A stretch of DNA of 62,288 nt, filler included, from Perkinsus olseni (GCA_013115125.1; 14 parts of 14 records of this genome joined end to end with filler, not necessarily neighbours in it), one strand, 5' to 3'. Counted from the first letter of the whole stretch, positions 14,438 to 57,981 are shown. A program made the numbers and translations. The notes: generated by a model from the letters alone, not told the origin.

Positions 14438-14990
14438 ATACACATCATACGGAGCCTTGTTCCTGACATCTCATGACGTTGGGCAGAGTGGACGTCAGGT
14501 CGAAGATCCGTACGCTGCTGTGTCGATGTTCCCGGTACGCAGTGTCGAATTTCATGGTGGGTGGTGCGGGAGGGAATGTTTTTCTTTGGCGAGCTTCCTA
14601 CCTCGCCTATACATTAAAGAACCTTAAGGCCTTGAGCGGCGGCCATTGTGCTTGCGTGCGGCTCCTGTAGTGTACGTGCGCACAAACTGCGTCGTGCGCC
14701 ACATACACATCATACGGAGCCTTGTTCCTGACATCTCATGACGTTGGGCAGAGTGGACGTCAGGTCGAAGATCCGTACGCTGCTGTGTCGATGTTCCCCA
14801 TGTACGTGGAGCGTCGGATCTGAGTGTCCACTCCGCCCGCGTGCGTCTGCCCCCCACGAGGAAAGAGACGCGCCTGACTGTGGTCGAACGCAAGTCGTGA
14901 CGTATTGGATAGCTGTTCGTAGTAGTGTCGAGTGGCTGCGAAGTCATAATGTTATGGAGAGGACCCATGATGATGGTTAAGCCTGACCGG

Positions 14991-16031: not shown

Positions 16032-16173
16032 TGGAAAAAGAATGTAGCCTGCCTAGGGGGTTGAGATGCCTGAACACAACCCGTGGAGAGTTGAGACGAA
16101 AGGGGGGATGTAGCGTAAGAAGTGAAAAAGGTCCATAAGTGTTCAATGACGCGTTTGTAGTGACGGAGATGCG

Positions 16174-17928
16174 TTAAGAGGTAGTGGACCACCAAGATGG
16201 TAATTTGATGGTCACTGGAAAGCCGCAGTTGGTGTAGGGGCATTCACCACGTGATAGCGTATCCGCTGGATTCAAGGCAGAGGGAACATGAGCTACGAAG
16301 AAATGATAGATTTGAAGATCAGCAAGTCTGCGCCAAAATTCTCCTGCCATGGTATTCAATCTTTCCGAAGGACTGGAGCCCCTAAGTATGAGATATTGAC
16401 ATGTACTGTTATCCGTGAAGAGAAGCAAGCACTTGTTAGCGCACCAAAATCGGAGAGACTCGATAGTGGTAGTAGCAGCTAGCATCTCCAGAGTATTGAT
16501 GGACTCCTGTTGGAGTTGGAGTTGTAGCTGACCATAAAATAGTGGTAGTTGATGTTGAGCCGGAGAAAATATTCCTATACCATATGAAGTAGATGCATCC
16601 GAGTAGCATATGAATGGTTTCAGAGATGAATGTAGCTGTGTTTCCAGAATAAGGTCTCTGGCGTAATGTTGAGCTTCAAGGAGTTGAAGGAGCATAGATA
16701 GAGCCGAGCGAACGGATGCATCCGCGATAGGCTTCCCTAGCGACTTCCGAATGAGTACTCTGCATGGTGCACGACCCAAGCGCCCGAAGAGAGCCTCACA
16801 ACAGAAGGATAACTTGCCTGCGACTTTGGAGTCCACGATAGTTGACTTGGACAATGCGATGATATCGGCATGTAACCGTGTTTTGCGTTCAGGAGTGAGC
16901 GTCACCCTACATTGGCCATGGACTAAGCTGACTTGCAGTCCCAGAAGGACGGTTTCCTCGGCTGGAGGAATAGTCTTAGCATGTTTGATCTTAGCGCCCG
17001 TGAGACCGTGTAAAAAGTAGAAGAACTCCATAGCAGAACCGCTGCATTCGGCGAGCTCAACTGGGAAAAAATCATCCATATAAGCAAAACAATTGCACAT
17101 CGCTAAACAGCGCATGAGGTGGCAATGTAATTCACTGATCCTCAGAAAATTGCTCACACTGGCGCTGGCTCCGAAAGGGCAGACACGGGGAACGAAAACT
17201 TTGGGCATGTTATCATTGTCATTGAACATTCCTGCTGCTTTGAATGAATCAAGTAATCGGAATCTGTCGATAAGCGGATTGATGATCGAAGCGACCAATG
17301 TGAAGAATTGCTTCCGGAGGGAAATCTAATTGTACCAATAACTGAGCTACATGTGGTAACCGAGGCATCTCAACTTTGTGGAGAGTAGTGGCGCCCTGGT
17401 TGAATGCGCGACCCCCCACCGAGAAGGAATAATTCGAGATAAGTCGCACTTTGTCGCTCTGGTCTATTGCAAAGAGCGGGGATGCGAAGTCAATCCCCTG
17501 AGGTAGGCTATGAAGAGTATATGGGCCTTCTGCTCGACCAAGGCCTATCTCGTTATACACATTGGAGATAACTGCTTGTTGTAAACGTTCGTCGCTAACA
17601 GTCTTGTTCAAGTATGATGCTACCTTGCACAGGTTGGAGTGCGATGTAGACAAGTGGGATCGGGACCACTTGGCGATACGAGGTTTAGACAATGCTGGAA
17701 GGTAGATAACCCTGGGATTTCTCCAAGAAGGGGAAATCCGTCTTGTAAATTGTCAGGAATATCCCTATCCGCATAGTTAGTAAGATCGATCAAGGCGGAC
17801 ACAGCATTGATGTTCCAGTGTGATGCTGCTCGAGGGGGGATGTAATTGGCAGGTAAGTCCGAGACCCATACTTGAAGGGCTTGTATGTTGTGCTGACGAA
17901 CCCAGTTGAGCTCTTGCGGAGATAAACA
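16174..17928 (-). pseudogene. DIRS-type RT/RNaseH, frameshifted near 17255 and 17700
   Basis: GFPLLG, DHQSAYRQI, CPFGASAS, AYMDDFF, YSDAS, LEMLA, FTDN, NPADTLSR, spread over three ORFs. Confidence 0.9.
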
Positions 17929-18551: not shown

Positions 18552-18836
18552 TCTTGGAGGACGGCATCCTTGTACGTCTTCTTATTAGTAGAGGGACTGT
18601 TATCTCCGTAATTACTCATTGGAACACAACCAGAGGAGGAAAATAAACCTGCAAACTCATAGTTATCGTAATGGAGGAAACTACTCTCCACTAGCGTCAT
18701 TGTGTTAGGCTGAGCGAATCACTTAAGAATCATAATAGACAGCCCGTCACAATAATCAAAGAAAATACAATAATAATGCCAAGGCTCGGGATCGAACCCG
18801 GAGCCTCCATCGGCGCACCGAGCACATAGTGCTACA
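18552..18836 (-). repeat. 3' LTR, 285 bp, TG...GA ends; identical by eye to 55035-55319
   Basis: Directly follows the integrase stop. Downstream flank begins ATTT. Confidence 0.88.
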
Positions 18837-31040: not shown

Positions 31041-31734
31041 TCGTATTGGCATACCTATGGTATTCTGCTAGTCGTCCTCTACTCGCTCTGTTGTCGACGT
31101 CGTCGGAAGTGACGACAAGTTGTCGTCACTTTCGCTATTTTCTGCTGCTGTCATCAATCGCATTTGGTAATTGTTATCATCGTAAGGAGGGATTTGTCGG
31201 CTGCCTTAAGGTTGTTGGCAAATCGCCCAGTGGTAGCAGACTGCTACTAGCAGGGTTTCACCCAGGCGTACCCCACGCGCCTCCAGGCGCGTGCCGCTTA
31301 CCATAGTATCGGCTCAGGCGCGCCAANNNNNNNNNNNNNNNNNNNNNNNNNNNNNNNNNNNNNNNNNNNNTTAATTAATTAANNNNNNNNNNNNNNNNNN
31401 NNNNNNNNNNNNNNNNNNNNNNNNNNAGACCAGGAAGGATCTTCCACTGTCAGAAACGCGAAGTAACCACCCGAGAACGTAAGTCTGTATAATACGGGCG
31501 AAGCTTTCCACGGTGAGGACAGCCGGAGCCTTTCAGCGTTCACACCTTCACAACGTAAATGGGACAATTGGATAAGAGCCAGCCGTGAAGACCCATCCTT
31601 CCCTAGTTTCCGCTACGACACCTCTCCCGGGCCACATCCACGCTCTGAAGGGCTACTAGATCAGTACTACCTATCATGAAACGGAAAAGAGGGCCACCCA
31701 TGGGAGCGACCATAGCATCGTAATGGAGAGAAAT

Positions 31735-31808
31735 GCATCATGATGGGTTCGAACCCGATACCTACTGTCATCAAAGCTCTTGCTGCTCATCCCCAGTTGT
31801 CCACAACT
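31735..31808 (-). ncRNA. Weak tRNA-derived A/B-box sequence
   Basis: TGGACAACTGG ... AGGTATCGGGTTCGAACCC at near-tRNA spacing. No convincing stems. Confidence 0.3.
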
Positions 31809-35284: not shown

Positions 35285-36414
35285 AGCAGCATATACCACA
35301 ATGATAACAAGAGAACTCGACGGGGACCCGACAACAGGCCACAACAAAAGTAACTGACAGTAGGCACCAACTTGACCTATTTCGTATCTTGCACGCTCGA
35401 CCTAAGGAATCCCGCAACGAGACTCCCCAATGTATCCATGCCTACGAGACTGCGTCTCTCCTCAGGACACCATCGCAAGGCTCAGCCTGTCGTCCTTCAA
35501 CCAGGAAGCTCCCCCCTCTTCTCCATAGATCAAACTCCCCGCTGGAGTCGACGCTGCGAGCTAACGCCGCAGCTGCTTGGAGCTTCACTAACGAGAGCCT
35601 CACCTTTCCCACCACAACCACGACGAATTCGTCGCCGAGGATTCGGCGCGCGCCCAAAAACTAACGAAGCCAACCAACGAACACAGCGAGAGAGAGTTGG
35701 AATGTGAGATTCGCACGCCTCTCTCTCAGTATCTTTGTATATCGCCCGCCTAAATGTGTAACCGTGAAACCGCNNNNNNNNNNNNNNNNNNNNNNNNNNN
35801 NNNNNNNNNNNNNNNNNTTAATTAATTAANNNNNNNNNNNNNNNNNNNNNNNNNNNNNNNNNNNNNNNNNNNNGCCCAGGCTCGCTGATGTGTCGCTTGC
35901 GCGACAGTTTATGGTTTTTGGCAAACCCGGCGCCTTACCACCAAGCGGCCTAGCGATGACTCTTCTCCTCAACCATTGAAGGTGACACGCCGTAACTAGT
36001 GCTGGCTGCTGTTGATATCTTTGATGTTACTTGTTCGTTCGCTCTCGATGTTACTTCGTCAGCCGAGTCCTTACAGCTTTGCGTTCAGTCTCGTCGGTTG
36101 GCGGAGTCAGTCCGCACGGACACAAAGGCCGGGCGTTCACCTTCCACTAAGCCATCATCGACTACTCAGGTAATGCTACATCCCTTACGGGCTCTTAGTA
36201 ACACATCATGACCTCGCTCTCAGTCCGTAAGAGGATCTTCGAACCTCGGGATATCTCATTCACTCGTGTCAATTTCTGTTGCAGAACTCCTAGTAGTACT
36301 AGAGTTAATTCAAACATACCCTAGCCGTTCACTCGTCTCTCAAAGACATATCCTTCGCGTAAAACCCTTACTAGGTTTACATCCTACGTAGTGCCTATAC
36401 TATAGGTACCGCCG

Positions 36415-38556
36415 GTGTGTCTCGCTGAGCTAGAATTGAAACAGGTCTTGGATAGCAGTGACTCTCCCGACCCTCTCGCACCAGTCTCGCATCCTCGCCG
36501 TTGGAACCAAATGGTGACATACTTCACTCCTCGCCTCTGTCGAGTTGGCTCCGGGGTTCAGCCCCGGGCATGTCGTCATGATGCTTATGTCGATCTCGCC
36601 ACGGCCCCTCCGGAACGGGTTGACTCGGATGAGCAACTTCGTCATATGGCACAAGCCGCTGACTCGACCCATCCCTTAGCTGGCACTCCTGGGCTTCCTG
36701 ACACCGTTTTGGCGGCGGTCAATTTCCTTCGGCGTGTTGGTTTGCAGAACGTTAAGGGTCTTCGGGAGTCTGCTATAGCATATTGGTCTGACCGCGCTGT
36801 CGTCTTGGCGGATGAAGCCGCGAAAGTATCGGCTTCGATGCCCGACAACTTGCGCCGTATAGCTGGTCACTTGAACATTCCCCTTTTCAAGGAAATGCTG
36901 CATGCGTCTCACTACCCGGATGAAGGTTTGGCAGACGACCTAATCCATGGTCTCTGTCTCCATGGTTCCTTCGGCCCATTAGAGGGCGTTTTCCGTACCA
37001 TTCCCGAGGGCAAGAGGCGCCCACCCACTGAGTCGTTGCAGGAGCTACTTCGAGATGGCCCTCGTAGAGCGAGATCGCTGATATCTAGGGTAGAACGTGA
37101 AGAGTCTGATTTCACCACAGAGCTGTGGAACTCAGCCATGAAAGAAGTAGATGCTGGTTCTATGAGGGGTCCCTACTCGTTTAAGGAGATCGAAGAGCTT
37201 TTTGGGGACTTTGTTGCTTCCAGACGTTTCGCAGTGGCGCAACCCTCGAAGGTGCGTCCGTGTGATGATTTTCGACGTTCGGGCCTCAACGCCTCGATGT
37301 CTTTTATCAGTAAGGTTTCTTTTCCAAATCCGGACGCAGCAGTAGCTTGTGCTCGCTTGTTGGCGTCAACTTGTGGGACCGACGATCTTCTTTTCTGGAA
37401 GAGCGATCACACATCTGCATATCGCCAAGTTCCTTGTGATCCTGGTTCATATAAGTTGACTGTCATATTTCTTAAGGATCCTTCGTCGGGCAAGGCAAAG
37501 GCTTTCTTTCATGTCGCGCAGCCTTTCGGTACGGCGAGCTCGGTTTACAATTACTGCAGGGTCAGCCAAGCCTTGGCCCACATCGGCCGGATCCTATTTG
37601 GGATTCCAGTCTTGAACTATTTGGACGACTATTTTAGCCTGGAACCGTCTACCTGTGCGGATTCTGCATTTGATACTTGGACTTGGTTACATTCCGTGTT
37701 GGGATGGAAACTGAATCTGGATAAAGGGGTTCGTCCATCCTCGACTATACAGATTCTAGGTGTGCAGTTGTCGATCTCCGATGGCAAGATTCTTATGCAA
37801 GTTCCGAAGGAGAAGTTGGATTCACTTCTGCTCGACTTAACGACAGTTCTCCAAGACGGATTCTTGTCCTCTTCCTTCTGCTCAAAGTTGATTGGTAAGC
37901 TGAACTATGCATCTGGTGCTATAGAATCATCAGCCTGTAAGCCTTACATTCGCTCTCTTCTGCACTTTATGCATCATCAGTTCACGCCACTGCGAGGAAG
38001 CATATCTGCGGAAGCGAAGTCCGCGTTAGAAGGTTTTCGCCTGATTTTGTCTTCTTCGCACTACAATAGAGTTATTCCTTTGCTTCGTTCTGATTACTCT
38101 CTAATGGATAACTGCGTGCTCTACACTGATGCTTGTCGTTCGGGGGGCATTGGCGCGGTCCTTTACCAGAGCTCTTTCTCTAAACCGCTCTACATTTCCG
38201 ACTCTGTTCCCTCTTCATTTACTGATAAACTTCTTGATCGTCATAATAGTATTATTCCGTTCGAGCTTTATGCCGTTGTAGCTGGCCTTTCGTCCTTTGA
38301 GAAGTACCTGCGGCATAAGTGGATCACAGTTTTCGTTGACAATGAGTCGGTAGAGCGAATGCTCGTAAGGGGTTACTCGCCTAGTAACGACCTGAATCTC
38401 CTTGTAACTAAGTTTTGGTCCATCTGCGCGCGTTTGGGTCTGAAGGTATGGGTTGAACGAGTTCCCTCTCACCTGAATGTTGCGGATAAGCCCAGTCGTC
38501 GAATTTTTGATGAGTTCATTTGCAGTTTTAGCCGCAAACAGTTCATTTGTCCCTGA
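36415..38556 (+). CDS. DIRS-type reverse transcriptase/RNaseH
   Basis: KVRPCDDF, DHTSAYRQV, QPFGTASS, YLDD, YTDAC, FELYA, FVDN, NVADKPSR. Confidence 0.95.
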   Translation: MCLAELELKQVLDSSDSPDPLAPVSHPRRWNQMVTYFTPRLCRVGSGVQPRACRHDAYVDLATAPPERVDSDEQLRHMAQAADSTHPLAGTPGLPDTVLAAVNFLRRVGLQNVKGLRESAIAYWSDRAVVLADEAAKVSASMPDNLRRIAGHLNIPLFKEMLHASHYPDEGLADDLIHGLCLHGSFGPLEGVFRTIPEGKRRPPTESLQELLRDGPRRARSLISRVEREESDFTTELWNSAMKEVDAGSMRGPYSFKEIEELFGDFVASRRFAVAQPSKVRPCDDFRRSGLNASMSFISKVSFPNPDAAVACARLLASTCGTDDLLFWKSDHTSAYRQVPCDPGSYKLTVIFLKDPSSGKAKAFFHVAQPFGTASSVYNYCRVSQALAHIGRILFGIPVLNYLDDYFSLEPSTCADSAFDTWTWLHSVLGWKLNLDKGVRPSSTIQILGVQLSISDGKILMQVPKEKLDSLLLDLTTVLQDGFLSSSFCSKLIGKLNYASGAIESSACKPYIRSLLHFMHHQFTPLRGSISAEAKSALEGFRLILSSSHYNRVIPLLRSDYSLMDNCVLYTDACRSGGIGAVLYQSSFSKPLYISDSVPSSFTDKLLDRHNSIIPFELYAVVAGLSSFEKYLRHKWITVFVDNESVERMLVRGYSPSNDLNLLVTKFWSICARLGLKVWVERVPSHLNVADKPSRRIFDEFICSFSRKQFICP

Positions 38557-38636
38557 CTCTTCCACCCCGCTAATTTGCCGTTGTGCTCGGGTGTTGTGTT
38601 CCGCGTATCGAGGTCGCTTCAGTTTCCTTCTTTTCT

Positions 38637-39962
38637 ATGGTACAGCAGCCTCCGCGTACGCGGGAATATGATTTCTATTCGGCTTTTAACCTGAGCCCTT
38701 GGCAATTTGCTCAGCTACCTTTGTGCCTTCTGAAAGCGGGTATATTCGACTGGGGTGAAGCTCGTAGTCGTATGCGCGATGACCTTCTTGCTTCGGTCCG
38801 CGATCCAACGGCTCGTGCTGTATTGCGTGCCGCGGTGCAGTCTCCCTCCACTTTTCCGAGCGCCTACCTTCTACACGATTCCCTGATAAATGCAGTTCTT
38901 CAAGCTAGACTGCACTTTGATCTCCCTGAGCAACTTCTCCATGATACTCCCCCACCGGGAAAAGTAGCCCGGAGGTTCTCTGGTTTTTCTTCTTCTACCA
39001 AGAATTCGGTGGTTCGCGATCTCACTGCGGCTTCGGAAGTCCTCCACATCTTGGCTGTGGATCCTACTACTTTCTCTCAATACTCATCTGGATTTCGAAG
39101 TTATCTGAGTTTCGCCCATTCCGTTTCGTCGAGTGAGAAGCAACCCGCAGCTGGCCTCCTACCTGCAAGCGAGAGAGTCATGCTTCTTTGGATTGTTACA
39201 TTTCGGAACTCCGAGTCAGCATCCAACTATGTTACCCATATTCGACGATGGCACTCGTGGTTGAAGCTAGATATGAGTTGGGATACCTCGTCTTTGTCTG
39301 CTCACTTAAAAGGTCTTCGTAAACTGGTTCCTTCAGTGTCTAAGCCTCGCAAACGAATATCCCCGGCTCTCTTGTCTCGCATAGTAGAGAAGTCTTTCTC
39401 TCTCAAATTGCCTCTCATGGCCTTGGTCGCCATACTTGCGTACTCTTTTCTTCTCAGGGTTAAGTCAGAGCTCCTCGCAGTGACAATAGACGATATTTCT
39501 TTAACTCGGGAGTATGTTGCCCTTCGCTTGAAGAAGAGGAAAACTGTCCCGCAGGGAGAGACCATTCTGCGTTACTGTACTTGCTCTTCTAATTCTCTCC
39601 TGTGCCCTGTAGAGGCTGCGAAGATTTCCGTCGAGCTTCATTCGACTCTCCGAGTCCAATCTCCACTTCTATTCGGCAGCGTATCCTACCGCTCTATCTT
39701 GGTACACTTGCGCTCTATTCTGTCAGCCCTACACGTCAAAGACTCGTCTGAGTATGGGACTCACGCATTTCGACGGGGTCATGCCCACGCTCTAGCCTCG
39801 TCTGGGTCATCTCACGAAGAACTATGTAGGGCAGGCTCCTGGAGGTACAAGAGTGCAGTACCCGCTAGAATCTATGCCGATATCTCTGAGATTGAAGCCA
39901 TCGCATGCCGTCAAGCCCTTCCTGATATTTTGGAGAGTGACAGCGAATCTGATGATGACTAA
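38637..39962 (+). CDS. Tyrosine recombinase
   Basis: LLRVKSEL, LCPV, THAFRRG, GSW...IY. First ATG at 38637 (open from 38583). Confidence 0.93.
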   Translation: MVQQPPRTREYDFYSAFNLSPWQFAQLPLCLLKAGIFDWGEARSRMRDDLLASVRDPTARAVLRAAVQSPSTFPSAYLLHDSLINAVLQARLHFDLPEQLLHDTPPPGKVARRFSGFSSSTKNSVVRDLTAASEVLHILAVDPTTFSQYSSGFRSYLSFAHSVSSSEKQPAAGLLPASERVMLLWIVTFRNSESASNYVTHIRRWHSWLKLDMSWDTSSLSAHLKGLRKLVPSVSKPRKRISPALLSRIVEKSFSLKLPLMALVAILAYSFLLRVKSELLAVTIDDISLTREYVALRLKKRKTVPQGETILRYCTCSSNSLLCPVEAAKISVELHSTLRVQSPLLFGSVSYRSILVHLRSILSALHVKDSSEYGTHAFRRGHAHALASSGSSHEELCRAGSWRYKSAVPARIYADISEIEAIACRQALPDILESDSESDDD

Positions 39963-44030: not shown

Positions 44031-45417
44031 AGCCGGTTCAATCCTCCTCCCTCTGTCAATGTGTCAGTTGAGTGTTACGTCTCTTCTTGAGTGGTTTCAG
44101 TTGCCCTCCTGCCTTGCCCCTCTACCAGGTACCGTGAGCTTATGTGCCAGCGTCTACTCGGCGTATCTTACGCATCGAACTCGCAGGCCGAGTCCACACG
44201 GGATGCGAACAATCTGATCACGTTAAAGAAGAAGTTCGGGAAGGACGCTCTACAGCCTTGTGATGTGAGTGGAGCACGGCTCCCCGCCTAACGCACCCAC
44301 GACTGTTCACGGTGCTGATCATCATGTACAACTCTTGAATGACGCAATGCCCTTGAGCTGGAACGTTGTGATGCCCTCGTAGAAGGCCTCTGTTCCCTCG
44401 TACAACGGATATGATGTCTTCGTATTCTGGACCGCTGGACAGTTGAACGCTCTCTCATGGCTCAGGTTATCCTTCACGACGTTGAGAACTCGAAGAAAGT
44501 GAGTACGCATGTGCTTCGAAGACTCACAGGCCACCACCGAGATATACCAGAGATCTCAGCCTTGATAGTAGCCCCCCGCACTCCTCCCCACTTCCATGGG
44601 CGCTGCCCCAGGTGTCAAGGCACTTCTGGCCCTCCAGNNNNNNNNNNNNNNNNNNNNNNNNNNNNNNNNNNNNNNNNNNNNTTAATTAATTAANNNNNNN
44701 NNNNNNNNNNNNNNNNNNNNNNNNNNNNNNNNNNNNNAATATGTTACTCCGAACATCCACTTTCGAGCCTTCGATGGCGTATACGCCGCCAATCGCCTCG
44801 AAGATGATGAACAAGACGCCTGAGCTACGCGAATCTTATAATTTGTCATGAGCAAGCTTCGACTTCCAAACCAACACGTAATGCCAAGGCTGATAGAAGT
44901 AATTTCCCCTCATTCAGGATTCAAAATCTCCTTCACGGGAATGCAATAAATATAGCAAGCGCAGCTTTCTAGAAAGATATCTTCCCGCCATAATCACCAC
45001 CAATGTTGCAACAACCACACCCAAAAGACGGGTGAAGTACGAACGATGATGACCGGCAGCAGCGGCTCTGAGTGATGGGCTGAGCTATCCAATATCAGAC
45101 ATGCTAGAGTCTAGCAGCTAGACAATCTCCTCCTCACAGTCTCTGCGTTGCGCTCCATCACATCCTCGCAGCTCACCAGCGGTGGTAGCGTGTTGGTGGT
45201 CTGTATGAAAAGTAAACCGTTAATGAAAGGCTTTGCAGATCCTCACTTCTTTCCTGCCACCATCTTTCCGTTTTCTAATACCCCGCACGGACGTCATTAA
45301 CAATACTATCTGTATGATGATAGTCGGCATCCCATCAGTAGTGGACTATCTCTCCGACTTAACACAATCGATAAATTCACATCACATCATAATAAATACA
45401 CATGAACATCATCATCA

Positions 45418-46299
45418 TCATCCTACACGCTCTAATTTCACCATCTCCCCACCAATGAAGATCTCCACTCCCGACCCGGAGGGTGAGAAGATATTCACCA
45501 ACTTTGGGCTCGCGGAGAATCGGTAACCGGCCATTCTCGAGGCCCAGTCAAACACCTCCATGTCACTTATGGTGTAGTTGTTCAATACGGAGAATTCCTC
45601 TTCCTCGGCGACGATTCTCTCCATCCTCATCCAACCAGTGGACTTGCTCTCCCCGGACGAGAGACTCGTGAACTCAAATTTGGCTGCGAAATCTTGAGAG
45701 ATCTCGAGGTTGATGCCGATGATCGAATCCCAGTGTCCCGAATATTTCCCAACCAGTGAATGTAATTGTGTTTTCTCTCCATGGCTTGTGGACGGCTGGT
45801 CGGACGACGAACGAAGCCTCTTAGGTACCGCGGTATCTTTCCCATTGAACTTCCGCTTCAACACTGGGGCATTCTCTTTCGCGAGCGCAGTTGAGTCCTT
45901 GCGGGGTCGAAGACGGTATACCCCGAGGTCGATTACGTTGAGGTACAAACGACCTTCTTGTAGGGACACAGTGAAGGAATAAGTATCAACTCCCACATTC
46001 AGCCGTTTATTCACATTTTTGCAGAAAGTGCCGAATTGTTGGACCCGGTAGCCGGGCTGCATCAGGGAGTAGCTGCCGTCAGGACGAGGGTAGCCTTTCA
46101 GGGTGGGAGATATGATCGCATCGGATCCCTTCTGTACCCTGAGCCGCAGCGCCTGATCTTCGAACACCTCCATTGTGAGGTCATGACCACCGGGTAGTTT
46201 ATCATCACTGACATATACGCCCGGTGTTAATTGCAGTTCATTACCAACCGTAGAAGCCTCGACAACAGCGAGCAGCTCGAAAACCAAGATCAACTTCAT
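45418..46299 (-). CDS. Predicted secreted protein of unknown family
   Basis: Signal-like MKLILVFELLAVVEA, then two beta-rich modules (PGVYVS..., VGKYSG...) joined by a basic linker. A paralog is adjacent. Confidence 0.75.
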   Translation of the reverse strand: MKLILVFELLAVVEASTVGNELQLTPGVYVSDDKLPGGHDLTMEVFEDQALRLRVQKGSDAIISPTLKGYPRPDGSYSLMQPGYRVQQFGTFCKNVNKRLNVGVDTYSFTVSLQEGRLYLNVIDLGVYRLRPRKDSTALAKENAPVLKRKFNGKDTAVPKRLRSSSDQPSTSHGEKTQLHSLVGKYSGHWDSIIGINLEISQDFAAKFEFTSLSSGESKSTGWMRMERIVAEEEEFSVLNNYTISDMEVFDWASRMAGYRFSASPKLVNIFSPSGSGVEIFIGGEMVKLERVG

Positions 46300-47530
46300 A
46301 CAGCAAGCGATGGGGAATTCGGCAACTTTAGTCGCGCGAGCGAGCAATCTTACTCGCCCGTGTACTGTCCGCTCGCCAGCCCGAACGGTAGTTTCCTGGT
46401 TGCGTGTCGTACAGCCTCCACTAGCGGCGCCCGTAGCGTTGCTCCGCCTACAAGTGCCTCACATTCAAAACTCAAGGCAAGGTGACGCTGATCAGTCAAT
46501 AGTACCTGGCGAGTATTACATGAGCTATCACATGCACACGTAGTTGGTAAATACAATGTATGCACTACATGATAACTGTCAATCAAAAGGGCAAAGGTAA
46601 ATAGACGAATACGAGTTATATTGGTGAATGTGATGCCAATATCAGAGGGCGACTATGAAGAGTTCAACATAGTGAGCGATAGCACGTGATTCAAGGTAAA
46701 ATACTCATTAGGCCAGGGCTGGGACTCCAAGCCTCTCGCTGTTGCTACCATGTCACACGGTCCGTCTGGGAAGCCATTCTTTGGAATCGTGGTTCAAATT
46801 TTCGGCTGAAGTAGAGATGAGTCGGTTTACCAAGACGTGTAGCCTTAGGCTACTGTAGCTACAGTGTAGCTGCCACATGACGTGTAGGCTAGTAGACTAA
46901 TGTGCACAGCTAAATCACTCTCCCACGTTAGATAGATGAGCAATGAAAATGTAAGAGCTAGTAGAACCAATTGAAAATGGTGTGGAATGAGCGAGTAATC
47001 GAAAGTATGTGATTACATGCAACAGGAGTGCATGAAATAAATTAGTGAGAATGGCAGCATAGAAGGTCACAAGCTGAGATACGTAGATTAATTTGAGTTG
47101 TTGTTGAAACGAGATGGTAGAAGAAGGAAGAGGAGAAGATGGAGGGGTGGAAATTCCTTCTTCCATTCCACCGTGGAATGGCTCGAACAAAGATGGGAGG
47201 AAGATATGTTTAGTCGAAAGTTGGGAGAAAATGGGTACTTGAAATGTGAATTTGCAAGGAGTTTGCAGGAGTGTTTGTGAAATAAACATGTAGATTCTGA
47301 GTTTCAGAATTTCTTTATTGAACGAGGGACAGCTTCGCTACGAAGGAGAACTCACAGGCGATAAGAGCAGCCTTGCCCTCATGGTAGGGAGATTCAGCGG
47401 TCATTTCCCGAGTTGAGTATGCAGAAGGGTCGCCGTATGCTGTAAGCCGTTACTCACTGAATTGATCGAGCGACTTAACACAATCGACCAATCCACATCA
47501 CATCATAATAAACACATATGAACATCATCA

Positions 47531-48004
47531 TCACCCTGCACGCTCTAATTTCACCATCTCCCCACCAATGGCGACCTCCACTCCCGAACCAGAAGGTGAG
47601 AAGATATTCACCAACTTTGGGCTCGCGGTGAATTTGTAGCTGGCCATCCTCGAAGCCCAGTCAAACACCTCCATGTCACTTATGGTGTAGTCGTTCAATA
47701 CGGACAATTCCTCTCCCTCGGCGACGATTCTCTCCATCCTCATCCAACCAGTAGACTTGCTCTCCCCGGACGCGAGACTCGTGAACTCAAATTTGGCTGA
47801 GAAATCTTGAGAGATCTCGAGGTTGATGCCGATGATCGAATACCAGTGTCCCGAATACTTCTCAACCAGTGATGGTAATTGCGCGTTCTCTCCATGGCTT
47901 GTGGACGGATGAGCCTCGACAACAGCGAGCAGCTCGATCACCGAAATCAACTTCGTAGTTTGAGAGACGGGAAACCCGGCAGTACCAGACGCGCGAGCGA
48001 GCAA
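47531..48004 (-). pseudogene. Internally deleted paralog of 45418-46299 lacking the ATG
   Basis: Signal segment is fused directly to the near-identical C-terminal module. ATG is replaced by ACG (TKLISVIELLAVVEA). Confidence 0.75.
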
Positions 48005-48288
48005 TCTTGCTCGCCCGTGGACAGCCCGCCCGCCTGCCCGAACGATGGAGTTTCCTTGGCGGCATCGCCCGAATCGTCATGTGCACACGTCGTGCGGAGG
48101 ACCTCTATCAAGTCATGAGGTAACCATTCGTGGTAAGCCAGTCCAAACCCAAGTACACTCGTTGCTATTGGAAGTCGGAGTCATCGTACGAATTGGAGTT
48201 ATGAATCGATGAACCCTTTCCTGCCCAATTGCCGCTGTCCGGCACACAATGTGTGTCCCCAATGGAAGAAAGTCTATCGCCAAGCTCA

Positions 48289-49058
48289 GGGGCCTATTTC
48301 ATAGGACGATTTTCCTTAAGATCCTAAGGGGTTAGGACGCCTTTCTAGGCCTTATGGCTTTCACATGGACCGATTCCTAAGCTTAGGACATAAGGGTAGG
48401 ACATTAGGATCTTAACATTTAGGATTTAGGAATTAGGACGCGGTTATGACATTAGGATAGGCGGTTAGGACGTATGGATTTCACGAGGCACTTTTCCTAA
48501 CGTTAGGACGCGTTGTTTAGGACAACATCGTAAAGTACCTCGGGGGGTACTTAATAGGCATCCTAACCGCGAAAATGGTAGCCGTGACACCTTCCGCTCC
48601 GCTAGAAGCTCCCCGGTTCTCTCCCGGCACATGTCAAATCTTCGGGACTTGTGTATTTTTGCAAGTTTAATTTTAGCGGCGTGCTGTGCAGTCTGTCTGG
48701 AAGTGCACTGCGAGTTGCAGACTGCAATCCTTGCAGTACTTTTCTCGTAGGTCTAGCGCCTGAGGTAGTCAACAAGGTCTCATCTTCATGGCCCGCGATT
48801 CAAGTGTTGCAGCTCGATAGGTTAAGTAACGCGTCTGTCACCCGCGAGACCGTCGGTTCGAATCTGGTAAATCACATTTTTCTCCTTTTTTGCTTGGTAT
48901 GGTAGGTTAGGACGTCTTTATCCTGAGATAAGGACGTCTTTAAAATTAGGATCCTACTGTCCTTTAAGGATTTTCATGTGAAACTGCTTGACTCTTTTAA
49001 GGACGTCCTAAGGTTAGGATCCTATTTTTAAAGACGTCCTAAATCCTAACCGGTTAGG
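48289..49058. mobile_element. MITE-like element with TAGGA(C) motif arrays around a unique core; right end missing
   Basis: Starts GGGGCCTATTTCA (Harbinger-like end, inference). Dense TTAGGA/TCCTAA motifs in both orientations at ~48300-48570 and 48900-49058. Confidence 0.6.
48803..48891 (+). ncRNA. tRNA-Asp(GTC)-like cloverleaf with a downstream oligo-T terminator
   Basis: Anticodon arm CGCG/CGCG with loop CT-GTC-AC. T arm GTCGG-TTCGAAT-CTGGT pairs fully with G:U. Acceptor stem is imperfect. T5 and T6 runs follow. Confidence 0.68.
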
Positions 49059-51320
49059 NNNNNNNNNNNNNNNNNNNNNNNNNNNNNNNNNNNNNNNNNN
49101 NNTTAATTAATTAANNNNNNNNNNNNNNNNNNNNNNNNNNNNNNNNNNNNNNNNNNNNTGAACCGGGTATTGTGTTATCTAGTACCGTGGTCGGTATAGG
49201 GAGCTCTTTAAATAAAACGCGATCCACAACAAAATCATTAAAAAATCATAGACCAGGAATCAGGGAAGCCCTCAGTTCCAAGAGTCCTCAAGCCTTCTCT
49301 TCCTCGACTCACAGGGCGGAGACGTATCTTCACGGCGCGATGACGAAGAAGCCCCAGACTTGCGTTGGGAATAAGCTTGGCCCAGCTCCTTGAGAGTATC
49401 AAAGACACCATCTACACTGGCGGGAGCCTCACGCAGTTTCTTGTACATACCAGGGTCCTCATCAGCCCAATAAGTACCAGCACCACGATGAGCACGGTCC
49501 ACAGCTTCCCAACTAGTCTTGCACCATTCATCATTACGAAGCTTGAAGGCAGCAGGCAAGTACTTAGATAGAACTCCCTTAGAACTCGTCGAGGTAGAAG
49601 AGTCCTCGTGAAGAGCCCTATTAACAGCAATGGTCTTGTTGTGACCCAGTAGATGACCATACTTTGCCTCATTCACGGTAAGTCCACTGCGACGGCCCTT
49701 CTCATCACGAACGTGAGAGAGGAAACTCTTGTCAGACCTACCAATGAAGAGCAAAGTCCCTTCACGGATCGGACAATCCGCAGCCTGTCTCATCAACTTG
49801 AAGAGTCCTTCTTCACAATGCTTGCGACAGCAGTATACCAGATGAGCATTAGTAGAAGGGTAGCCCTTCGGGTCCATGTCCTTGACCAAATTTATAGCCA
49901 TCACGGGAAGAGTGTTAGCGTCGATGCACCATCTTAGAAGTCCTCCTGCCGTAGGCAGCCAATCCCTGTACGGACGATCCTTAGTCGGCCCAGCAAGAAG
50001 TCCACTGACGAACAGTACACGTCCACCAGCAGAAGCCTCAAGCATCGAAGGCGAAAATAGTCCAGCCACCACATTAGACTTGACCGGGTGAGGGCCATTA
50101 AGTAGGGAGTAACAGTCCTCGCCAAGGTCGTGTCGGAGGGCATTTAACTTTTGACGCCAAAGAAGCACATCTTGGTCATTCTCGGACACGTAGTAGTCCT
50201 TCAACCAGCCCAGACGCTGCTCCAAGTTGCCTTGCTTATACCGAGGGAATAAGAACTGCAGCGTATGATGGTGATTCTCCTCAAAAGAGCCCGAATCCTG
50301 ACCCAACTTAGCAGAGCCCATAGCAGCATCAGCCACTTGAGACGGCCGTTCCCCTACAACAGGGGATTCTCGTTGCGCAAGGCGCTCTGGCGTGGGGGTA
50401 TCTTCTTGCAGTGGGGGCAACGGTCCAACACCAGCACCGGTATCACCCTCAGCCTCGGCATTAGCGGAATCATCGGCCACCGGCTCAGCCGCAGTAGGAC
50501 GGTCCTCAACGTCATCGTCCGCGAATACCGGGGGTTGAGCACGGCGCTCCCACGTAGGTCCCTTGGCCCACCGAGACGGTGTAGTTGCCGAGGGCCTCGC
50601 CGAAGAAGCAGCCTCTGTAGCCGAAGTCCTCGCCCGCAGATTAACCGGACGGGTCTCACTGACGAATTCAACGTCAGAGGATACCGAAGACCGAGCAGGC
50701 ATAGGCCACGGAGAAACAGCAGGGATACGACAACCGGCCCACGCCTCGCGCTTTCGCTCATTCTCACGAGACCGAGCGATAGTACCAAACGACTCAGGGC
50801 CCACGACACCACGACGGACATAGTCTAGAGCAGAAGCAAGTCCATCAGGGTAAGGAAGCCCATTGAAGACACAAATCTCTTGTAGGAGAACCACTTGTGC
50901 GGGGGTGAGAGTAGCCGATTCCTTGAGGAACCATGGCGCCCAGTCAGCCTTCAGAGTGTAATACTGATGCTTCAAAACCTGATATAGGTCCCAGGTCGCT
51001 CGAGTCCACCTCTCCGTGAGGATAGAGTCTGATATCCTCATGGGCGCCGGCTCGCCTCTAGAACGGGGAACCTCCATTCATACATCGCTGTTTCATACAT
51101 TGTAGGTTTCGTCCACGATTGTTTCATCCATGGTAGGGTTCATCCTGCTTGTTTCGTCCATGTTACTTCCGTCCATCCTCTTTCATACACGTCTCTTTCG
51201 TCCACGGGTCTTACGTACATGATTCTTTCATCCACGCCGTTTCGTCCAATCATGCTCTAACTCCGCTTCTTTCTTCCAGGGCTTTTCGTACAAGCCTTTC
51301 GTACATGTGCGTTTCGTCCA

Positions 51321-51374
51321 CGCTACTTTTAGACATATGTGACGCCGCGGCGTCACATATGTCTAAAAGTAGCG
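51321..51374. repeat. Perfect 54-bp palindrome, no spacer
   Basis: CGCTACTTTTAGACATATGTGACGCCG is followed by its exact reverse complement. Confidence 0.97.
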
Positions 51375-51419
51375 CGCGGCGGCTGCGCCGCCGGCGCCAT
51401 CACTGCCGCCATTACCATC

Positions 51420-51492
51420 TACCCCTACCCAGATTTGAACCTGGGACCATCGTCATGCTAGCCGGGAGCTCTACCAATTCCGCTATTACCAT
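51420..51492 (-). ncRNA. tRNA-derived (Ala-AGC-like) Pol III cassette inside the MITE
   Basis: TAGCGGAATTGGTAGAGC, loop CT-AGC-AT, CCCAG-GTTCAAAT-CTGGG hairpin. Acceptor and anticodon stems are decayed. Confidence 0.6.
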
Positions 51493-53397
51493 CTCCTACC
51501 ACAACCTAAGAATCTCACCGCCGACTCTACTGGTGAGTCACCAGTGGTGACGATCTAGCACCCCCCACATCAGGTTTTCTCTGTGGTGATCCCAGTGCCT
51601 AGAGGCTCCAACCACGAATGGAGCCAAGTTGAATAGGTTGGGTATCGCATGGGTGGTACTCTGTCGGAGTTCAGTAGGAGTCTTACAGCTGAGTAGGTTA
51701 GCAGCTCATGCTCGTCCTCCCGAGGTCGTGGGTTCATTTCCTCCGATAAACATTTGCGTGCCGTCAGTTTCATATGTACGAACCGCTATTGGACGAATGA
51801 ATTTTTTTCGAAAAGATCGTGGCCGAATAGATCACAACGAGCATATCTTTGGATCATCCGCCCATGGACGAAATAATCGCGTACGAAACCGGTTATGGAC
51901 GAAAAAATCGTGACCGAAACATACACTTTTTCGATGTACGAAAAGATCATGAATGAACCGAAATTTGTACGAAACAATCTTGGATCGAAGCTGCAGTGGA
52001 CCAATTGATCATGGACGAATCGCGGTACACCCCTCTAGAAACATCAGCCCGTGACGGAGTAGCCGGGGTTTGGAAAGTGGTATACAAGGGACCTTGAACC
52101 GAACGGTAGGGAGTACCAAGCACCGGATCTCGACGTCGGGGATCAGCCCTCGATGACGATGAGGCAGTCGTGGCTGGCAAGGGCACCAGAGAGTCCATCC
52201 GGAACGCTTGCACAGCCTTCAGCGCCGCATCAACCTCCTCATTCCACGGGCAAGTACCGGCCTTAAGCTCGAAGGGGTCATACGCCGGAAAACCAAGGGG
52301 GCGGCAGCTATGTTCATCACACAACCGCCAAACGATCAGTAAGCCCAGCGCGGTATGGATATACATTCCCATAGTGCCCTTAGAGTTCTCCAACGCCGCT
52401 CCCAGACACTTAGAGAGATCACCCAGCAGCGAAGGCCCATCAACCTTCGATGCAGCATCCAAAAGGCCTTGAGCGGTCCAACCCAGCAGCAGTGAATGAG
52501 TTAGGAAGCAGTAAGGGAAGGCCTTCAGCTGTCGCGGAAAGGTCCCACGGGTCGCATCGTCATCAATCTTGTCGTGAAGACAGTCCAAATGAAACGAATA
52601 ACCCGGAGCACCGACATGTCGTTGGAAAGCCGCCAACAGACCCTTAAGGTCACCCGCGGCGGGCCACGAGAAGTCGAAGTCCCTGACCTTATCAGATGAC
52701 CGATATCCTTGGCCGATACTCGCTGTCCAATTCGCAACCGGTAGCACTTGAGCACAGATGTCGCAATAGTAAATACCTTCGAACGAGCACCAAATACCGC
52801 AGCCCAAAGCATGCGTCAAAGGGTCCATCTCCTCAGGATCAATCCGACCATCCAAGTACGCTAAGGGAAGGAACAAAGCAGAGTCCAACCCAGCAGCCAC
52901 CTGTAACAACTGCACCGATTCTTGAGCCCTTGGGAACGTAGCACCAACCATACGATCTAACACCTCGGGGTACATGAAGGGAGACCCAAAAGCCAAACAA
53001 GCCCGCTGAAGTCGCGAGCGAGTGGAAGCCCTTTCCCACGTAGGCGAACAACGTGCTGACATGTAAAACCCAGCGCGTAGCAACTGCGTATGAGCAGGAC
53101 GAGGGTCCTGCCAGTGCTCTAGCCCCGAAGGGCGCACACCTCCCAGCTGCTCAGGCAGAAGGGGGCGTTCCTTATCAGTGTCCTCATTAAGATAACGGTG
53201 ACGATGCAACCAGTAGCGCCTTCCAGCCACCGGGGTTGGGGGATGATCAAAGCCCATTGCACGAACGAGGTCTTGGATATGACGACCGATACCCTCAGGT
53301 TCGTAGCAGTTGACCAAATTCCTCACCGTCGGAATCATAAGAACCGGAAGGTTGGTAGAGTTGTTACCAGTCCTGTCGGGAGTCATAGTCCAACGAA

Positions 53398-53470
53398 CTA
53401 GGCACACACACGCAGCAAAGCCGCTAGCCGTGCGATGTCGAGTCTGGCTTCATTGTGTTGCGATGGAGGT
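53398..53470 (+). repeat. End of an unassembled repeat; related copy on the - strand at 53581-53652
   Basis: CTAGGCAC..CGCAGCAAAGCCGCTAG..GTGCGAT..TCATTGTGTTGCGATG is shared. Both copies truncate an ORF at a contig end. Confidence 0.8.
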
Positions 53471-53649: not shown

Positions 53650-55183
53650 TAGATACTAACATTATCATAGACTTCATTAACCTTCTTAACATAAGCATTC
53701 TTGCCCTTGTTTTACCCTTATTCTTCTTAGAATTAGGCTTCTGGTAATCGTCCTTCTTAGAGTTCTTAAACGCTTTCTCGGCCTCGTAGAACTTGGCAGA
53801 AAAATAGTCATAAGTACATAACGATACACCATAGTCCACCTTGTTCAGAATAATAAGTAACTGCTGGAAAACTAGCTTAGGCTCCTTCGGATAGTCAGTC
53901 TGTCCATAAACCATATATGAGAAAGACATAGCTTCATAAAGCATTTGTCTAACCGAAATTAAACTATCATCAGTAATCATAACTTCCAAAGGATGATAAA
54001 TAAGCTCCATCATAACCTTCAGCCTTGACGCATAAGAAAGAATCTCATAAATATCTCCCTTATATAGCTTGGCTAAGGTCGTAAAAACTTGGCTCTCCAT
54101 CATAACAATATCATTAAATCTAACAACTCCAAATTTAATAGTAGACCATTTCATATTCAAATATTCAGATATCTTAGACGCCAACAAATCTGCTTCTGGG
54201 ACAACAAACCTCTTACTCAGCATAATACTCAGATTACGGCATGACTCCTTCATATAGTCAGTGAATAGCTTCCTATCCAAAGTCCATTTACGTTGCTTCT
54301 CCTCAGACCAGGAATCCACCTGATATTCGGATGTTCCAACATAAGGGACCCACTTAGTAATAACAGAGCCAGAGGGTTCTGAAGAATTGGATATAAGAAC
54401 CAACCACTTATCCCGTAACTCCTTAGTCAGTGAGGAAGGTACCAAATAAACCAGAGTAGCCAATATGAGAGCTGGGTGAGGACACTTTGCTTGAGCAGTA
54501 TTAAGTTTAGCAGAAACTTGAGACCACCAATACTCGCCTTGAGAAGTAGAAGGAATCCCTTCATAAGGCTTCAAGGACCAGTCCTTGCAAAAGGCTACCA
54601 CATCACAACCATGATCCCATTTCTTCGAAGAGGAAGATGAGGACGACCAGGAAGACGATTCATGGTGTGGAAGGGGATTAGCCACGAGCCAAGGATTAAT
54701 ACCATCAACACCCAAAACCTTCTTAACGGTTTCAAAGAAGACATCATTAAACTCATTAAGGAGAGCATCGGAGCCATCAAAGGTTTTACCAACAAAAAAA
54801 TCAGGGGTACAGTCAGGATTTGACCAATCCTTAGAAGTATAATAAGAAGCATACCATTCCTTAAACCACGAAGGTTCAGAAACAACAGAAGCCGAGACCT
54901 CACCGGGTTCAAGAGGAGGACCCTTACTACCATTCGTAATAGCCAACAGAGGCTCCAAACTAGGATAAACCTCAAGCGTAGGCGAAGCAGCAGTATTAGG
55001 GCTCATAACGACTCCAGTGCCGGACGGTGCATCATCTTGGAGGACGGCATCCTTGTACGTCTTCTTATTAGTAGAGGGACTGTTATCTCCGTAATTACTC
55101 ATTGGAACACAACCAGAGGAGGAAAATAAACCTGCAAACTCATAGTTATCGTAATGGAGGAAACTACTCTCCACTAGCGTCAT
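53650..55183 (-). CDS. Gag-like ORF of the 285-bp-LTR element
   Basis: Long ORF that starts in the 5' LTR and reads through the PBS. Lys-rich C-terminus with a probable frameshift near 53710, then a repeat insertion. Confidence 0.75.
55020..55034 (-). promoter_or_regulatory. Candidate primer-binding site TGATGCACCGTCCGG (tRNA-Gly 3'-end-like, one mismatch to TGG)
   Basis: Immediately follows the 5' LTR. Resembles the complement of a ...CCGGACGGTGCACCA tRNA end (from memory; not verified in this genome). Confidence 0.5.
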
Positions 55184-55319
55184 TGTGTTAGGCTGAGCGA
55201 ATCACTTAAGAATCATAATAGACAGCCCGTCACAATAATCAAAGAAAATACAATAATAATGCCAAGGCTCGGGATCGAACCCGGAGCCTCCATCGGCGCA
55301 CCGAGCACATAGTGCTACA
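55035..55319 (-). repeat. 5' LTR, 285 bp, matching 18552-18836
   Basis: Precedes the PBS and gag. Upstream flank ends in ATTT. Confidence 0.88.
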
Positions 55320-57603: not shown

Positions 57604-57981
57604 TCCGTTGGATTGTCTCGACAGCGGGTGACGAGGCCTGAGAGATCTTCCCGGACTCTCAAGCAGTACTCAAGATCCAGTCGTCTCGAGCATTCTGGAT
57701 GCTGCATCCACGGCCCCTTGGGATAAGGCGAGACAGATCTATCTGCCCTTGTCCGAAATGCCCTTGTCCGTAAACTCAGGTTACGAAACACTGGAGATCT
57801 CTCAATTACGGGTGGGAATTTGTCAAGGTGGCTCATGCGATCCAGGTGGCCCAGCTAAAAAACTTGGTCGCGGGCACCAAGNNNNNNNNNNNNNNNNNNN
57901 NNNNNNNNNNNNNNNNNNNNNNNNNTTAATTAATTAANNNNNNNNNNNNNNNNNNNNNNNNNNNNNNNNNNNNNNNNNNNN

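Follow-up and report, generated by a model that had tools for sequence, protein, structure and literature searches.

Worn tRNA gene copies in the middles of two small cut-and-paste transposons of Perkinsus olseni

Several repeats in a stretch of the Perkinsus olseni genome (GCA_013115125.1) hold tRNA-like segments with A and B boxes, and the question is whether transposons acquired these segments as working RNA polymerase III (Pol III) promoters or carry them as remains of tRNA genes. A sequence-only reading of this DNA had taken the first view, proposing that transposons of unrelated classes captured tRNA promoters repeatedly, for transcription or to escape silencing. The whole stretch that was analysed, here called the window, comprises 62,288 nucleotides including filler and consists of 14 contigs, unlinked and each about 4.3 kb long, with N/TTAATTAATTAA linkers between them. 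The span 48289–52031, which that reading had treated as one locus, includes one such linker, so the two MITEs described there (a TAGGA-repeat element and a 968-bp element) are not neighbours. Taken together, our analyses point to worn tRNA gene copies in the middles of these two small cut-and-paste transposons, a finding that is real and fairly ordinary.

tRNA ancestry of the cassettes

B-box-like strings are present at every coordinate named by the sequence-only reading, and the decamer GGTTCRANNC occurs 13 times in the window compared with 3.85 ± 1.93 times in shuffles (palindromes and the duplicated LTR are each counted twice in the former number). Such strings could be decamers that arose by chance in repeats of balanced G+C content, without tRNA ancestry, an explanation favoured by the 3.85 decamers expected per window and by the 47 "tRNAs" that ARAGORN calls there at a relaxed threshold. 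We scanned the whole window by nhmmer with a sequence-only HMM made from 27 annotated phage tRNAs, with the highest score from every one of 30 dinucleotide shuffles as the null; these scores ranged from 2.4 to 11.4 bits, with 10/30 shuffles reaching 7 bits and none reaching 15 bits. The top three matches in the window lie above all shuffles and correspond to an Ala(AGC)-like unit at 51420–51492 on the minus strand (33.6 bits, E = 1.7e-9, match 51420–51491, profile positions 5–71), a Glu(CTC)-like unit at 9079–9151 on the plus strand (19.8 bits, E = 3.9e-5, match 9079–9152), and an Asp(GTC)-like unit at 48804–48876 on the plus strand (15.5 bits, E = 8.5e-4, match 48812–48876). There is also a Thr(CGT)-like unit at 51680–51752 on the plus strand, recognised by phage blastn and in-register alignment and scoring just 7.3 bits (E = 0.33) by nhmmer; it was absent from the earlier list and shares the 968-bp element with the Ala-like unit.

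Among the phage blastn matches listed, those falling under tRNA genes number 23/25 for the Asp-like unit, 4/14 for the Ala-like unit (which has a 67-nt match to a phage tRNA-Lys), 5/7 for the Thr-like unit (all five under tRNA-Thr) and 20/20 for the Glu-like unit (under tRNA-Asp or tRNA-Lys), as compared with 0/9 and 0/3 for two cassette-free control segments. All four cassettes align with real tRNAs gap-free and in register, with GTC (Asp), AGC (Ala), CTC (Glu) and CGT (Thr) in the anticodon slots and with the invariant G18, A21, C32, T33, C48, G52–C56 and C61 present in the ungapped cassette alignment. Judged by these comparisons, the Ala-, Glu- and Asp-like units are tRNA-derived relics, full-length and in register, and the Thr-like unit is probably tRNA-derived as well. 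Chance resemblance would suit the 6.8–7.3 bits of the Thr-like, LTR and orphan sites, a level that 10/30 shuffles attain, but is ruled out for the Ala-, Glu- and Asp-like units, which beat every shuffle and align full-length to tRNAs; it also sits poorly with Thr-like matches to tRNA-Thr that span 56–69 nt of the query in 5/7 cases, and as an account of the cassettes it seems to us extremely improbable.

Pairwise identity between the cassettes is 28–38 of 73 positions, and identity to phage tRNAs reaches 50/72. That the cassettes are no closer to each other than to phage tRNAs suggests separate source tRNAs, and not the one ordinary SINE family that the sequence-only reading had named as an outcome that would overturn it. 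A suspected further cassette at 48556–48646 was rejected, with 0/9 phage matches under tRNA genes and no nhmmer match. A 27-mer from the Ala-like unit had no match in a metagenome scan.

The cassettes are tRNA-derived (the Thr-like one probably), yet none of them is a functional tRNA gene. ARAGORN finds no tRNA gene in the window, and Rfam reports nothing at its gathering cut-off, which for tRNA is 29 bits. The best tRNA score is the 12.2 bits of the Asp-like unit (E = 4.3 in a 111-nt search), and tRNA matches at E ≤ 10 are absent for the Ala-, Thr- and Glu-like units in the searches (376 nt and 678 nt) covering these three, as they are over the whole window and over 48700–51800. Between 11 and 14 of 21 stem pairs survive per cassette, compared with 20–21 of 21 in four phage tRNAs: the Asp-like unit keeps 4/7 acceptor, 1/4 D, 4/5 anticodon and 5/5 T-stem pairs, the Ala-like unit 4/7, 2/4, 1/5 and 4/5, and the Thr-like unit 4/7, 3/4, 2/5 and 4/5. 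The acceptor stems are decayed, as had been described, and within each relic boxes A and B have been preserved best; the accompanying statement that all sites keep the B box is true of the strings, but partly reflects how the sites were picked.

Three of the five originally listed sites score above all the shuffles, and the LTR pair and the orphan match just a T-loop, at noise level. The LTR (285 bp, 18552–18836, minus strand) is 100% identical to its second copy at 55035–55319 (minus strand), and both hold a T-arm-like hairpin (18777–18816 and 55260–55298) that scores 7.2–7.3 bits (E about 0.33–0.34) with the T-arm alone aligning; matches to tRNA-Thr extend over only 21 nt, most matches fall in coding genes, and the element carries integrase ORFs, with a gypsy-type one upstream of the LTR. 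The orphan, a palindromic GGTTCGAACC at 31734–31784 on the minus strand (6.8 bits, E = 0.46), has only 24-nt matches. Both are best read as B-box look-alikes arising by chance. The Glu-like relic lies 56 nt into contig 3, and the Ngaro derivative said to adjoin it was not borne out: Pfam matches are absent from the ORFs beside it, and tblastx did not connect contig 3 with the DIRS/Ngaro-like contigs 4 and 9.

One clear and one probable non-autonomous TIR transposon carry three of the cassettes

The Ala- and Thr-like relics, which point away from each other and have 5′ ends 187 bp apart, lie within an element of 968 bp (51064–52031) with imperfect terminal inverted repeats (TIRs) and subterminal TTTCGTCCA/TGGACGAAA arrays. 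It is flanked by a 9-bp target-site duplication (TSD; CCTCTAGAA, 51055–51063 on the left and 52032–52040 on the right), and a contig from DNA run X7, representing an empty-site allele in another isolate, joins 51054 to 52032, the two sides sharing 9 letters at the joint. At 51063/51064 and at 52032 there are loose ends that continue into dissimilar flanks, those of other copies. Depth in DNA runs X1, X2 and X7 is 152, 77 and 55 over the flanks and 610–9973, 164–4168 and 1378–16964 inside the element, and in run X1 summed depth within it is 4–69 times that of the flanks, a sum over contigs that does not equal copy number. The element is thus a discrete DNA transposon that exists in multiple copies and has moved recently, with MITE-like features (imperfect TIRs, TSD, no coding capacity, multiple copies and evidence of insertion), and in this one element tested the cassettes are not the single copies that would have spoken against the original proposal. 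Its TSD has the 9–11 bp length of MULEs, or may be an 8-bp hAT-type duplication plus one chance match; none of 31 scanned window ORFs matches a MULE or hAT transposase family, and neither a parent tRNA locus nor an autonomous partner was found. A degenerate 19-mer from the element's end retrieved 70 metagenome loci, all by chance, and blasting the elements against these loci gave one 20-nt match.

Two further repeats lie within the element: a perfect 27+27 nt palindrome (51321–51374), and a truncated second Ala-like copy comprising the first ~34 nt of the unit (51387–51420, minus strand) in tandem with the first at a 74-nt period and 74% identity. Weak Rfam matches of the palindrome to plant miRNA precursors, far below cut-off, reflect hairpins only, and we rejected a miRNA-precursor identity.

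The 968-bp element interrupts a lineage-restricted ORF of ~1066 codons (49272–53449, minus strand) that is restored when the element is removed; the ORF is single-copy, and the flanks of the element are at single-copy depth. No Pfam family was detected in the ORF, a word-index homologue search was empty, and an exhaustive search of 1.84 billion proteins returned four weak or partial ones at E ≤ 0.001.

The Asp-like relic lies in the TAGGA-repeat element (48289–49058), whose left side holds TTAGGAC(G) arrays and whose right side holds the motif inverted, with families of direct and inverted repeats. It lacks a right end because contig 11 stops at 49058, and with inverted subterminal arrays as its only TIR feature it is probably a non-autonomous TIR transposon carrying the relic. 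Similarity between its ends and those of the 968-bp element is weak, and we do not assign the two to a single family. Part of what remains of the original proposal is that two non-autonomous TIR elements hold tRNA-derived segments of different isotypes (Asp in one, Ala and Thr in the other); the carriers are not of unrelated classes, both being class II TIR elements.

Passengers or selected promoters

We favour, with moderate confidence, the reading in which the cassettes, as dead remains of tRNA genes or tRNA-derived repeats, are carried passively inside the two elements. tRNA genes or tRNA-derived repeats would have joined the internal, non-terminal region of ancestral element copies, either by capture of host DNA at the DNA level during gap repair, in Pack-type fashion, or by insertion of a tRNA-derived unit into an ancestral copy. 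Later copying would have been passive, whenever transposase supplied in trans moved the elements, and the cassettes would now drift neutrally. A T5 run (48877–48881) starts directly (+1) after the Asp-like unit, and this run, together with the head-to-tail partial Ala-like unit, suggests that the source was genomic tRNA-gene DNA; a copy of a mature tRNA or a SINE body would be expected to look different.

Nested retroposition would instead have each cassette begin as a tRNA retro-copy, or as the head of a SINE of tRNA origin, that landed in an ancestral element, the remainder of the SINE having been lost or decayed too far. Precedents are at hand: tRNA-derived SINEs are described as common in fungi and other eukaryotes (PMC5063351), Kojima proposes SINE insertion as the way in which Helenus LTRs gained their tRNA-like part (PMC10886601), and the MER6 MITE contains a SINE body (PMC6887750). 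Against this, no TSD of at least 9 nt surrounds any cassette (the sole direct repeat is the partial tRNA-like unit of 74-nt period), an A-rich or simple-repeat tail and a shared body are absent, the cassettes are mutually unrelated, and at the end of the Asp-like unit there is a gene-type T5 run, with neither CCA nor a body. Within 0–50 nt downstream of the cassettes there are subterminal transposon repeats or a T-run, in agreement with the sequence-only reading that there is no SINE body or tail, and we consider nested retroposition unlikely.

The rival that follows the original proposal holds that the cassettes are selected Pol III/TFIIIC modules, outward-facing tRNA promoters kept to hold the ends accessible or to block silencing, a class II counterpart of Cassandra and the Helenus TRIMp3. 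Three cassettes from different tRNAs recur in two elements, their boxes are preserved better than their stems, all three face outward to the nearer end (a weak pattern, expected 1 in 8 times by chance) with T-runs at +1, +52 and +50, and the LTRs of fungal TRIMs, which hold tRNA-like promoters, supply a precedent (PMC10886601). B-box presence, being the search criterion, is not independent evidence for such modules, and the predicted transcripts would terminate inside the element, short of its ends. A DNA transposon moved in trans has no obvious gain from an internal Pol III promoter, and cut-and-paste movement needs no element RNA.

Copies of the 968-bp element bear on the same point. In run X1, the bins that hold the cassettes are at ~4–16 times flank depth, several-fold below the ~20–69 times near the element ends, a comparison that gives the share of copies with cassettes only roughly, since summed depth is not copy number and the subterminal arrays inflate the ends. 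Contigs that skip 51350–51448, 51358–51446 or 51486–51747 include some that leave out the B-box of the Ala-like unit or all of the Thr-like cassette; position 51736, in the Thr-like B-box, is T in all X1 depth, and at an X7 loose end this B-box is altered again. None of the 40 variants listed out of 166 falls at 51422–51493, in the Ala-like unit, so the Ala-like boxes could be conserved. Run X9, guessed to be RNA, has contigs only over the terminal parts of the element and none over 51384–51725, and is uninformative on expression. With core depth below that of the ends and cassettes missing or changed in some copies, the claim that promoters were captured for transcription or escape from silencing is not supported, and we hold selected modules to be distinctly improbable. 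Slighter still is the prospect that MITE families keep outward A/B-box modules beside subterminal transposase-binding arrays, such that TFIIIC/Pol III occupancy would open or shield the ends and prolong the mobility of cassette-bearing copies.

Relation to known elements, and consequences

Pack-MULE and Pack-TYPE elements are non-autonomous TIR transposons whose ends enclose captured host DNA. The 968-bp element resembles them in its TIRs, its TSD of Mutator-like size (9 bp), its host-derived interior, its amplification in trans and an interior that varies among family members; it differs in holding tRNA-gene relics instead of protein-gene fragments and in that neither a parent locus nor a MULE transposase was found, MULE being only a candidate superfamily. 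Dada transposons insert at a fixed site in tRNA or snRNA genes with a 6–7 bp TSD, and we rejected this identity for the 968-bp element, whose insertion lies in a protein ORF, whose TSD is 9 bp long and whose tRNA relics are internal. With tRNA-derived SINEs the elements share an A/B-box tRNA-like head and many dispersed copies, but body, tail and own TSD are absent, and copies are bounded by TIRs and the 9-bp TSD and move by cut-and-paste, as the empty site indicates.

The TRIMp3 elements Helenus, Cassandra and Ajax, as Kojima 2024 (PMC10886601) describes them, are mobile elements other than SINEs that have tRNA- or 5S-derived A/B-box sequence, are present in fungi and have a tRNA part unlikely to be functional. 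The likeness lies in carriers other than SINEs with such a tRNA part, whereas the carriers here, being DNA transposons, do not depend on an RNA template; the window's sole LTR candidate is not of this kind, having a T-arm only, at noise level, and a gypsy-type integrase ORF. MER6, according to Luchetti et al. 2019 (PMC6887750), is a MITE with a V-SINE-derived core consisting of SINE body and tail without a tRNA-related head; there too the interior of a MITE derives from a Pol III-type retroposon, in MER6 one spread by the burst of a DNA transposon, whereas here the tRNA-like units stand alone and the body is absent. Judged from listings of the full-text literature, subscription journals and Repbase aside, no paper appears to describe tRNA heads inside MITEs.

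The 968-bp element is a recently active mutagen, and a long ORF that it splits in this isolate is intact in another. Helenus inflates tRNA or SINE counts in rust fungi (PMC10886601). Were the cassettes to work as Pol III/TFIIIC sites, DNA transposons would belong with SINEs and TRIMp3 among the vehicles that spread Pol III promoters and possible chromatin boundaries across a genome. If the cassettes are instead passengers, as we favour, they matter mainly for annotation, in that MITEs spreading tRNA-like relics can push up counts of tRNAs or SINEs.

tRNA ancestry of the cassettes

Tests of tRNA ancestry separate three modules listed by the sequence-only reading, namely the Asp-like (48804–48876, + strand), Ala-like (51420–51492, − strand) and Glu-like (9079–9151, + strand) units, from its other candidates, and add a fourth cassette, a Thr-like unit at 51680–51752 (+ strand). 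ARAGORN predicted 0 tRNA genes in the window, where Rfam gave no match at gathering scores; at E ≤ 10 it reported no tRNA over the whole window or over a 3.1-kb subregion. Relaxed ARAGORN settings returned 47 "tRNAs" in 62 kb, which we discarded as noise. The sole unit with an Rfam tRNA match was the Asp-like one (12.2 bits, well short of the 29-bit cut-off, in a 111-nt search); searches of 376 nt and 678 nt around the Ala-like, Thr-like and Glu-like units gave no tRNA match. A sequence-only HMM built from 27 annotated phage tRNAs and scanned over all 14 pieces ranked the Ala-like unit first (33.6 bits, E = 1.7e-9, profile positions 5–71), the Glu-like unit second (19.8 bits, E = 3.9e-5) and the Asp-like unit third (15.5 bits, E = 8.5e-4), each above all 30 dinucleotide shuffles (best scores 2.4–11.4 bits, 0/30 at 15 bits, and a mean of 0.33 matches of at least 7 bits per shuffle). 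Within the noise range lie the Thr-like unit (7.3 bits), the two LTR copies (7.2 and 7.3 bits), the orphan site at 31734–31784 (− strand; 6.8 bits) and a site within a P-type ATPase ORF (9.1 bits).

When four 81–96-nt cassette segments and two cassette-free controls were searched by blastn in 2.3 Gb of phage sequence, the matches were weak. Annotated tRNA genes underlay 23 of the 25 matches listed for the Asp-like segment and all 20 listed for the Glu-like segment (36 records overall in each case), 5 of 7 for the Thr-like segment (51672–51760; every one a tRNA-Thr, spanning 56–69 nt of the query) and 4 of 14 for the Ala-like segment (including a 67-nt match to a tRNA-Lys; 4 others fell in capsid genes and 6 in unannotated DNA), as against 0/9 for the control at 48556–48646 and 0/3 for that at 51510–51600. 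For the LTR and the orphan, tRNA likeness was limited to 21–24 nt of the T-loop, in matches mixed with others in ordinary coding genes, and with their noise-level HMM scores chance resemblance is the better reading for both. Judged from these comparisons, the Asp-like, Ala-like and Glu-like units are genuine tRNA relics, and the Thr-like unit is probably one.

The four cassettes align with four phage tRNAs in register and without gaps, with G18, A21, C32, T33, C48, G52-G53-T54-T55-C56 and C61 invariant and with GTC (Asp), AGC (Ala), CGT (Thr) and CTC (Glu) in the anticodon slots. Whereas the phage tRNAs keep 20–21 of 21 stem pairs, the pairs in register in the acceptor, D, anticodon and T stems number 4/7, 1/4, 4/5 and 5/5 in the Asp-like unit, 4/7, 2/4, 1/5 and 4/5 in the Ala-like, 4/7, 3/4, 2/5 and 4/5 in the Thr-like and 3/7, 3/4, 3/5 and 2/5 in the Glu-like, which bears out the earlier description of the acceptor stems as decayed. 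Identity among the cassettes (28–38 of 73 positions) is no higher than to phage tRNAs (up to 50/72), so the cassettes have separate tRNA ancestors and do not belong to a single SINE family; direct repeats of at least 9 nt were found flanking none of the four.

Carrier elements and their surroundings

The 14 contigs of the window (4307–4413 bases each) are arranged by falling size and joined by linkers of 44 N, TTAATTAATTAA and 44 N (4414–4513, 8923–9022 and onward to 57882–57981), and adjacency of neighbouring pieces is biologically meaningless. One linker (49059–49158) sits within the span 48289–52031 given by the sequence-only reading: the TAGGA element (48289–49058) is truncated by the end of piece 11, the 968-bp element (51064–52031) lies in piece 12, and the remaining sites are spread over pieces 3, 5, 8 and 13. 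From its sequence, the source of the pieces is a repeat-rich eukaryote; domain content includes a gypsy-type integrase, a P-type ATPase and two DIRS/Ngaro-like retroelements with RNase H and tyrosine recombinase (13637–17325, − strand, and 36406–39959, + strand; mutual protein identity 27–43%). The 285-bp LTRs at 18552–18836 and 55035–55319 are 100% identical; in piece 13 the LTR accompanies an ORF without a Pfam match, in piece 5 it accompanies a long integrase-domain ORF, and the two pieces look like halves of one young gypsy-type element split by the assembler.

Two of the four relics are internal to the 968-bp element, a non-autonomous DNA transposon, and a third to the TAGGA element, probably another such transposon; each of the three is oriented to the nearer element end. 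The 968-bp element is flanked by CCTCTAGAA on either side (51055–51063 and 52032–52040), a 9-bp target site duplication (TSD) that fits a Mutator-like size; no transposase partner was found among the window ORFs. It has imperfect inverted ends and subterminal arrays of TTTCGTCCA and its complement, and it holds a perfect 54-nt palindrome (27+27 nt, 51321–51374), for which Rfam gave weak hairpin-type matches to plant miRNA precursor models and nothing else, followed by a GC-rich stretch. The TAGGA element is of generally similar build: TTAGGAC arrays occupy its left part and inverted copies of the motif its right part, and its right end falls beyond the contig. Just upstream, the ORFs at 45355–46397 and 47471–48056 form a paralogous pair (441 nt aligned at 92% DNA identity); their N-termini are hydrophobic, and neither has a Pfam match.

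In-silico removal of the 968-bp element restores a single, lineage-restricted, single-copy ORF of ~1066 codons on the minus strand (49272–53449), interrupted by the insertion at 51055–52040. We compared contigs from four public sequencing runs with 50700–52400. Flanks stood at single-copy depth (152/139 in run X1, 77/67 in X2 and 55 in X7), and summed depth within the element was far higher (610–9973, 164–4168 and 1378–16964, respectively). Contigs with loose ends at 51063/51064 and at 52032 continue into several unlike flanks, and X7 has a single 407-nt contig, of single-copy depth, in which 51054 is connected directly to 52032 and 9 letters can be assigned to either side. Depth, diverse flanks and this empty site together indicate that the element is discrete, multi-copy and polymorphic between isolates, and the intact site in another isolate that the insertion into the ORF is recent. 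Relative to the flanks, summed depth was 25–300x in X7 versus 2–69x in X1 and X2, a difference that points to widely unequal copy numbers among isolates or to a mixed sample.

The Glu-like relic had been placed beside an Ngaro derivative, an identity to which the neighbouring ORFs lend no support. Downstream of it, 9150–9700 (+ strand) is purine-rich with dense short GC hairpins; Rfam at E ≤ 10 gave chance-level matches only, and the adjoining ORFs lack a Pfam match. With the LTR and orphan at noise level as well, the proposed spread over unrelated transposon classes falls away.

Variation among copies and origin of the relics

The cassettes are multi-copy within the 968-bp element, at lower depth than its ends: X1 bins reach ~6x and ~13x flank depth over the Ala-like unit, ~4x and ~16x over the Thr-like unit and ~20–69x near the ends, with a similar shape in X2 and X7, and the cassette-bearing proportions are rough because depth is summed over contigs, which is not copy number, and is inflated by the end arrays. 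Some contigs skip 51350–51448 and 51358–51446, removing the Ala-like B-box, others 51486–51747, removing the entire Thr-like unit, and others 51498–51578; replacement and clean loss look alike, because intervening sequence is undefined at most of these joints. The Thr-like unit has at least 11 variant places, including 51736 in its B-box (T at all X1 depth), and a loose end in X7 alters that box once more; none of the 40 variants listed, out of 166, falls within 51422–51493 in the Ala-like unit.

These data bear on the proposal that the cassettes may be functional captured promoters, serving transcription or escape from silencing. The observation that all keep the B-box is partly a selection effect; the Thr-like B-box varies among copies, some copies have no cassettes, and cut-and-paste transposition does not depend on an element's own RNA. 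We regard it as improbable that DNA transposons here carry Pol III/TFIIIC modules.

The simplest account is uptake of tRNA-gene DNA by ancestral element copies, followed by passive copying and decay. Consistent with uptake, the Asp-like unit has its own terminator (a T5 run beginning at the first base 3′ of the unit), the Ala-like unit is tandem and the Ala-like and Thr-like units form a divergent pair 187 bp apart. The tandem arrangement (51387–51494, − strand) is the Ala-like unit followed head-to-tail by a truncated second copy of its first ~34 nt (74-nt period, 74% identity), the sole repeat found around the cassettes. One X7 contig has a backward joint (51492>51454) in this unit, which hints that unit number differs between element copies. 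The first T-runs lie at +52 past the Ala-like and +50 past the Thr-like unit, and no T-run occurs within 200 nt downstream of the Glu-like unit. Nested retroposition of tRNA-derived units into the elements is a fair second choice, against which stands the lack of supporting tails, bodies or TSDs.

Related associations have been described. Helenus elements, TRIMs with tRNA-like LTRs that are abundant in rust fungi and also occur in some Agaricomycetes, are proposed to stem from SINE insertion (Kojima 2024, PMC10886601), and MER6 is a MITE with a SINE body and without a tRNA head (Luchetti et al. 2019, PMC6887750). Among the listings of full-text literature searches, none pointed to a published description of tRNA heads inside MITEs. 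The observation in P. olseni is real but narrower than proposed: tRNA relics that are most likely passengers of MITE-like elements, one of them recently active.
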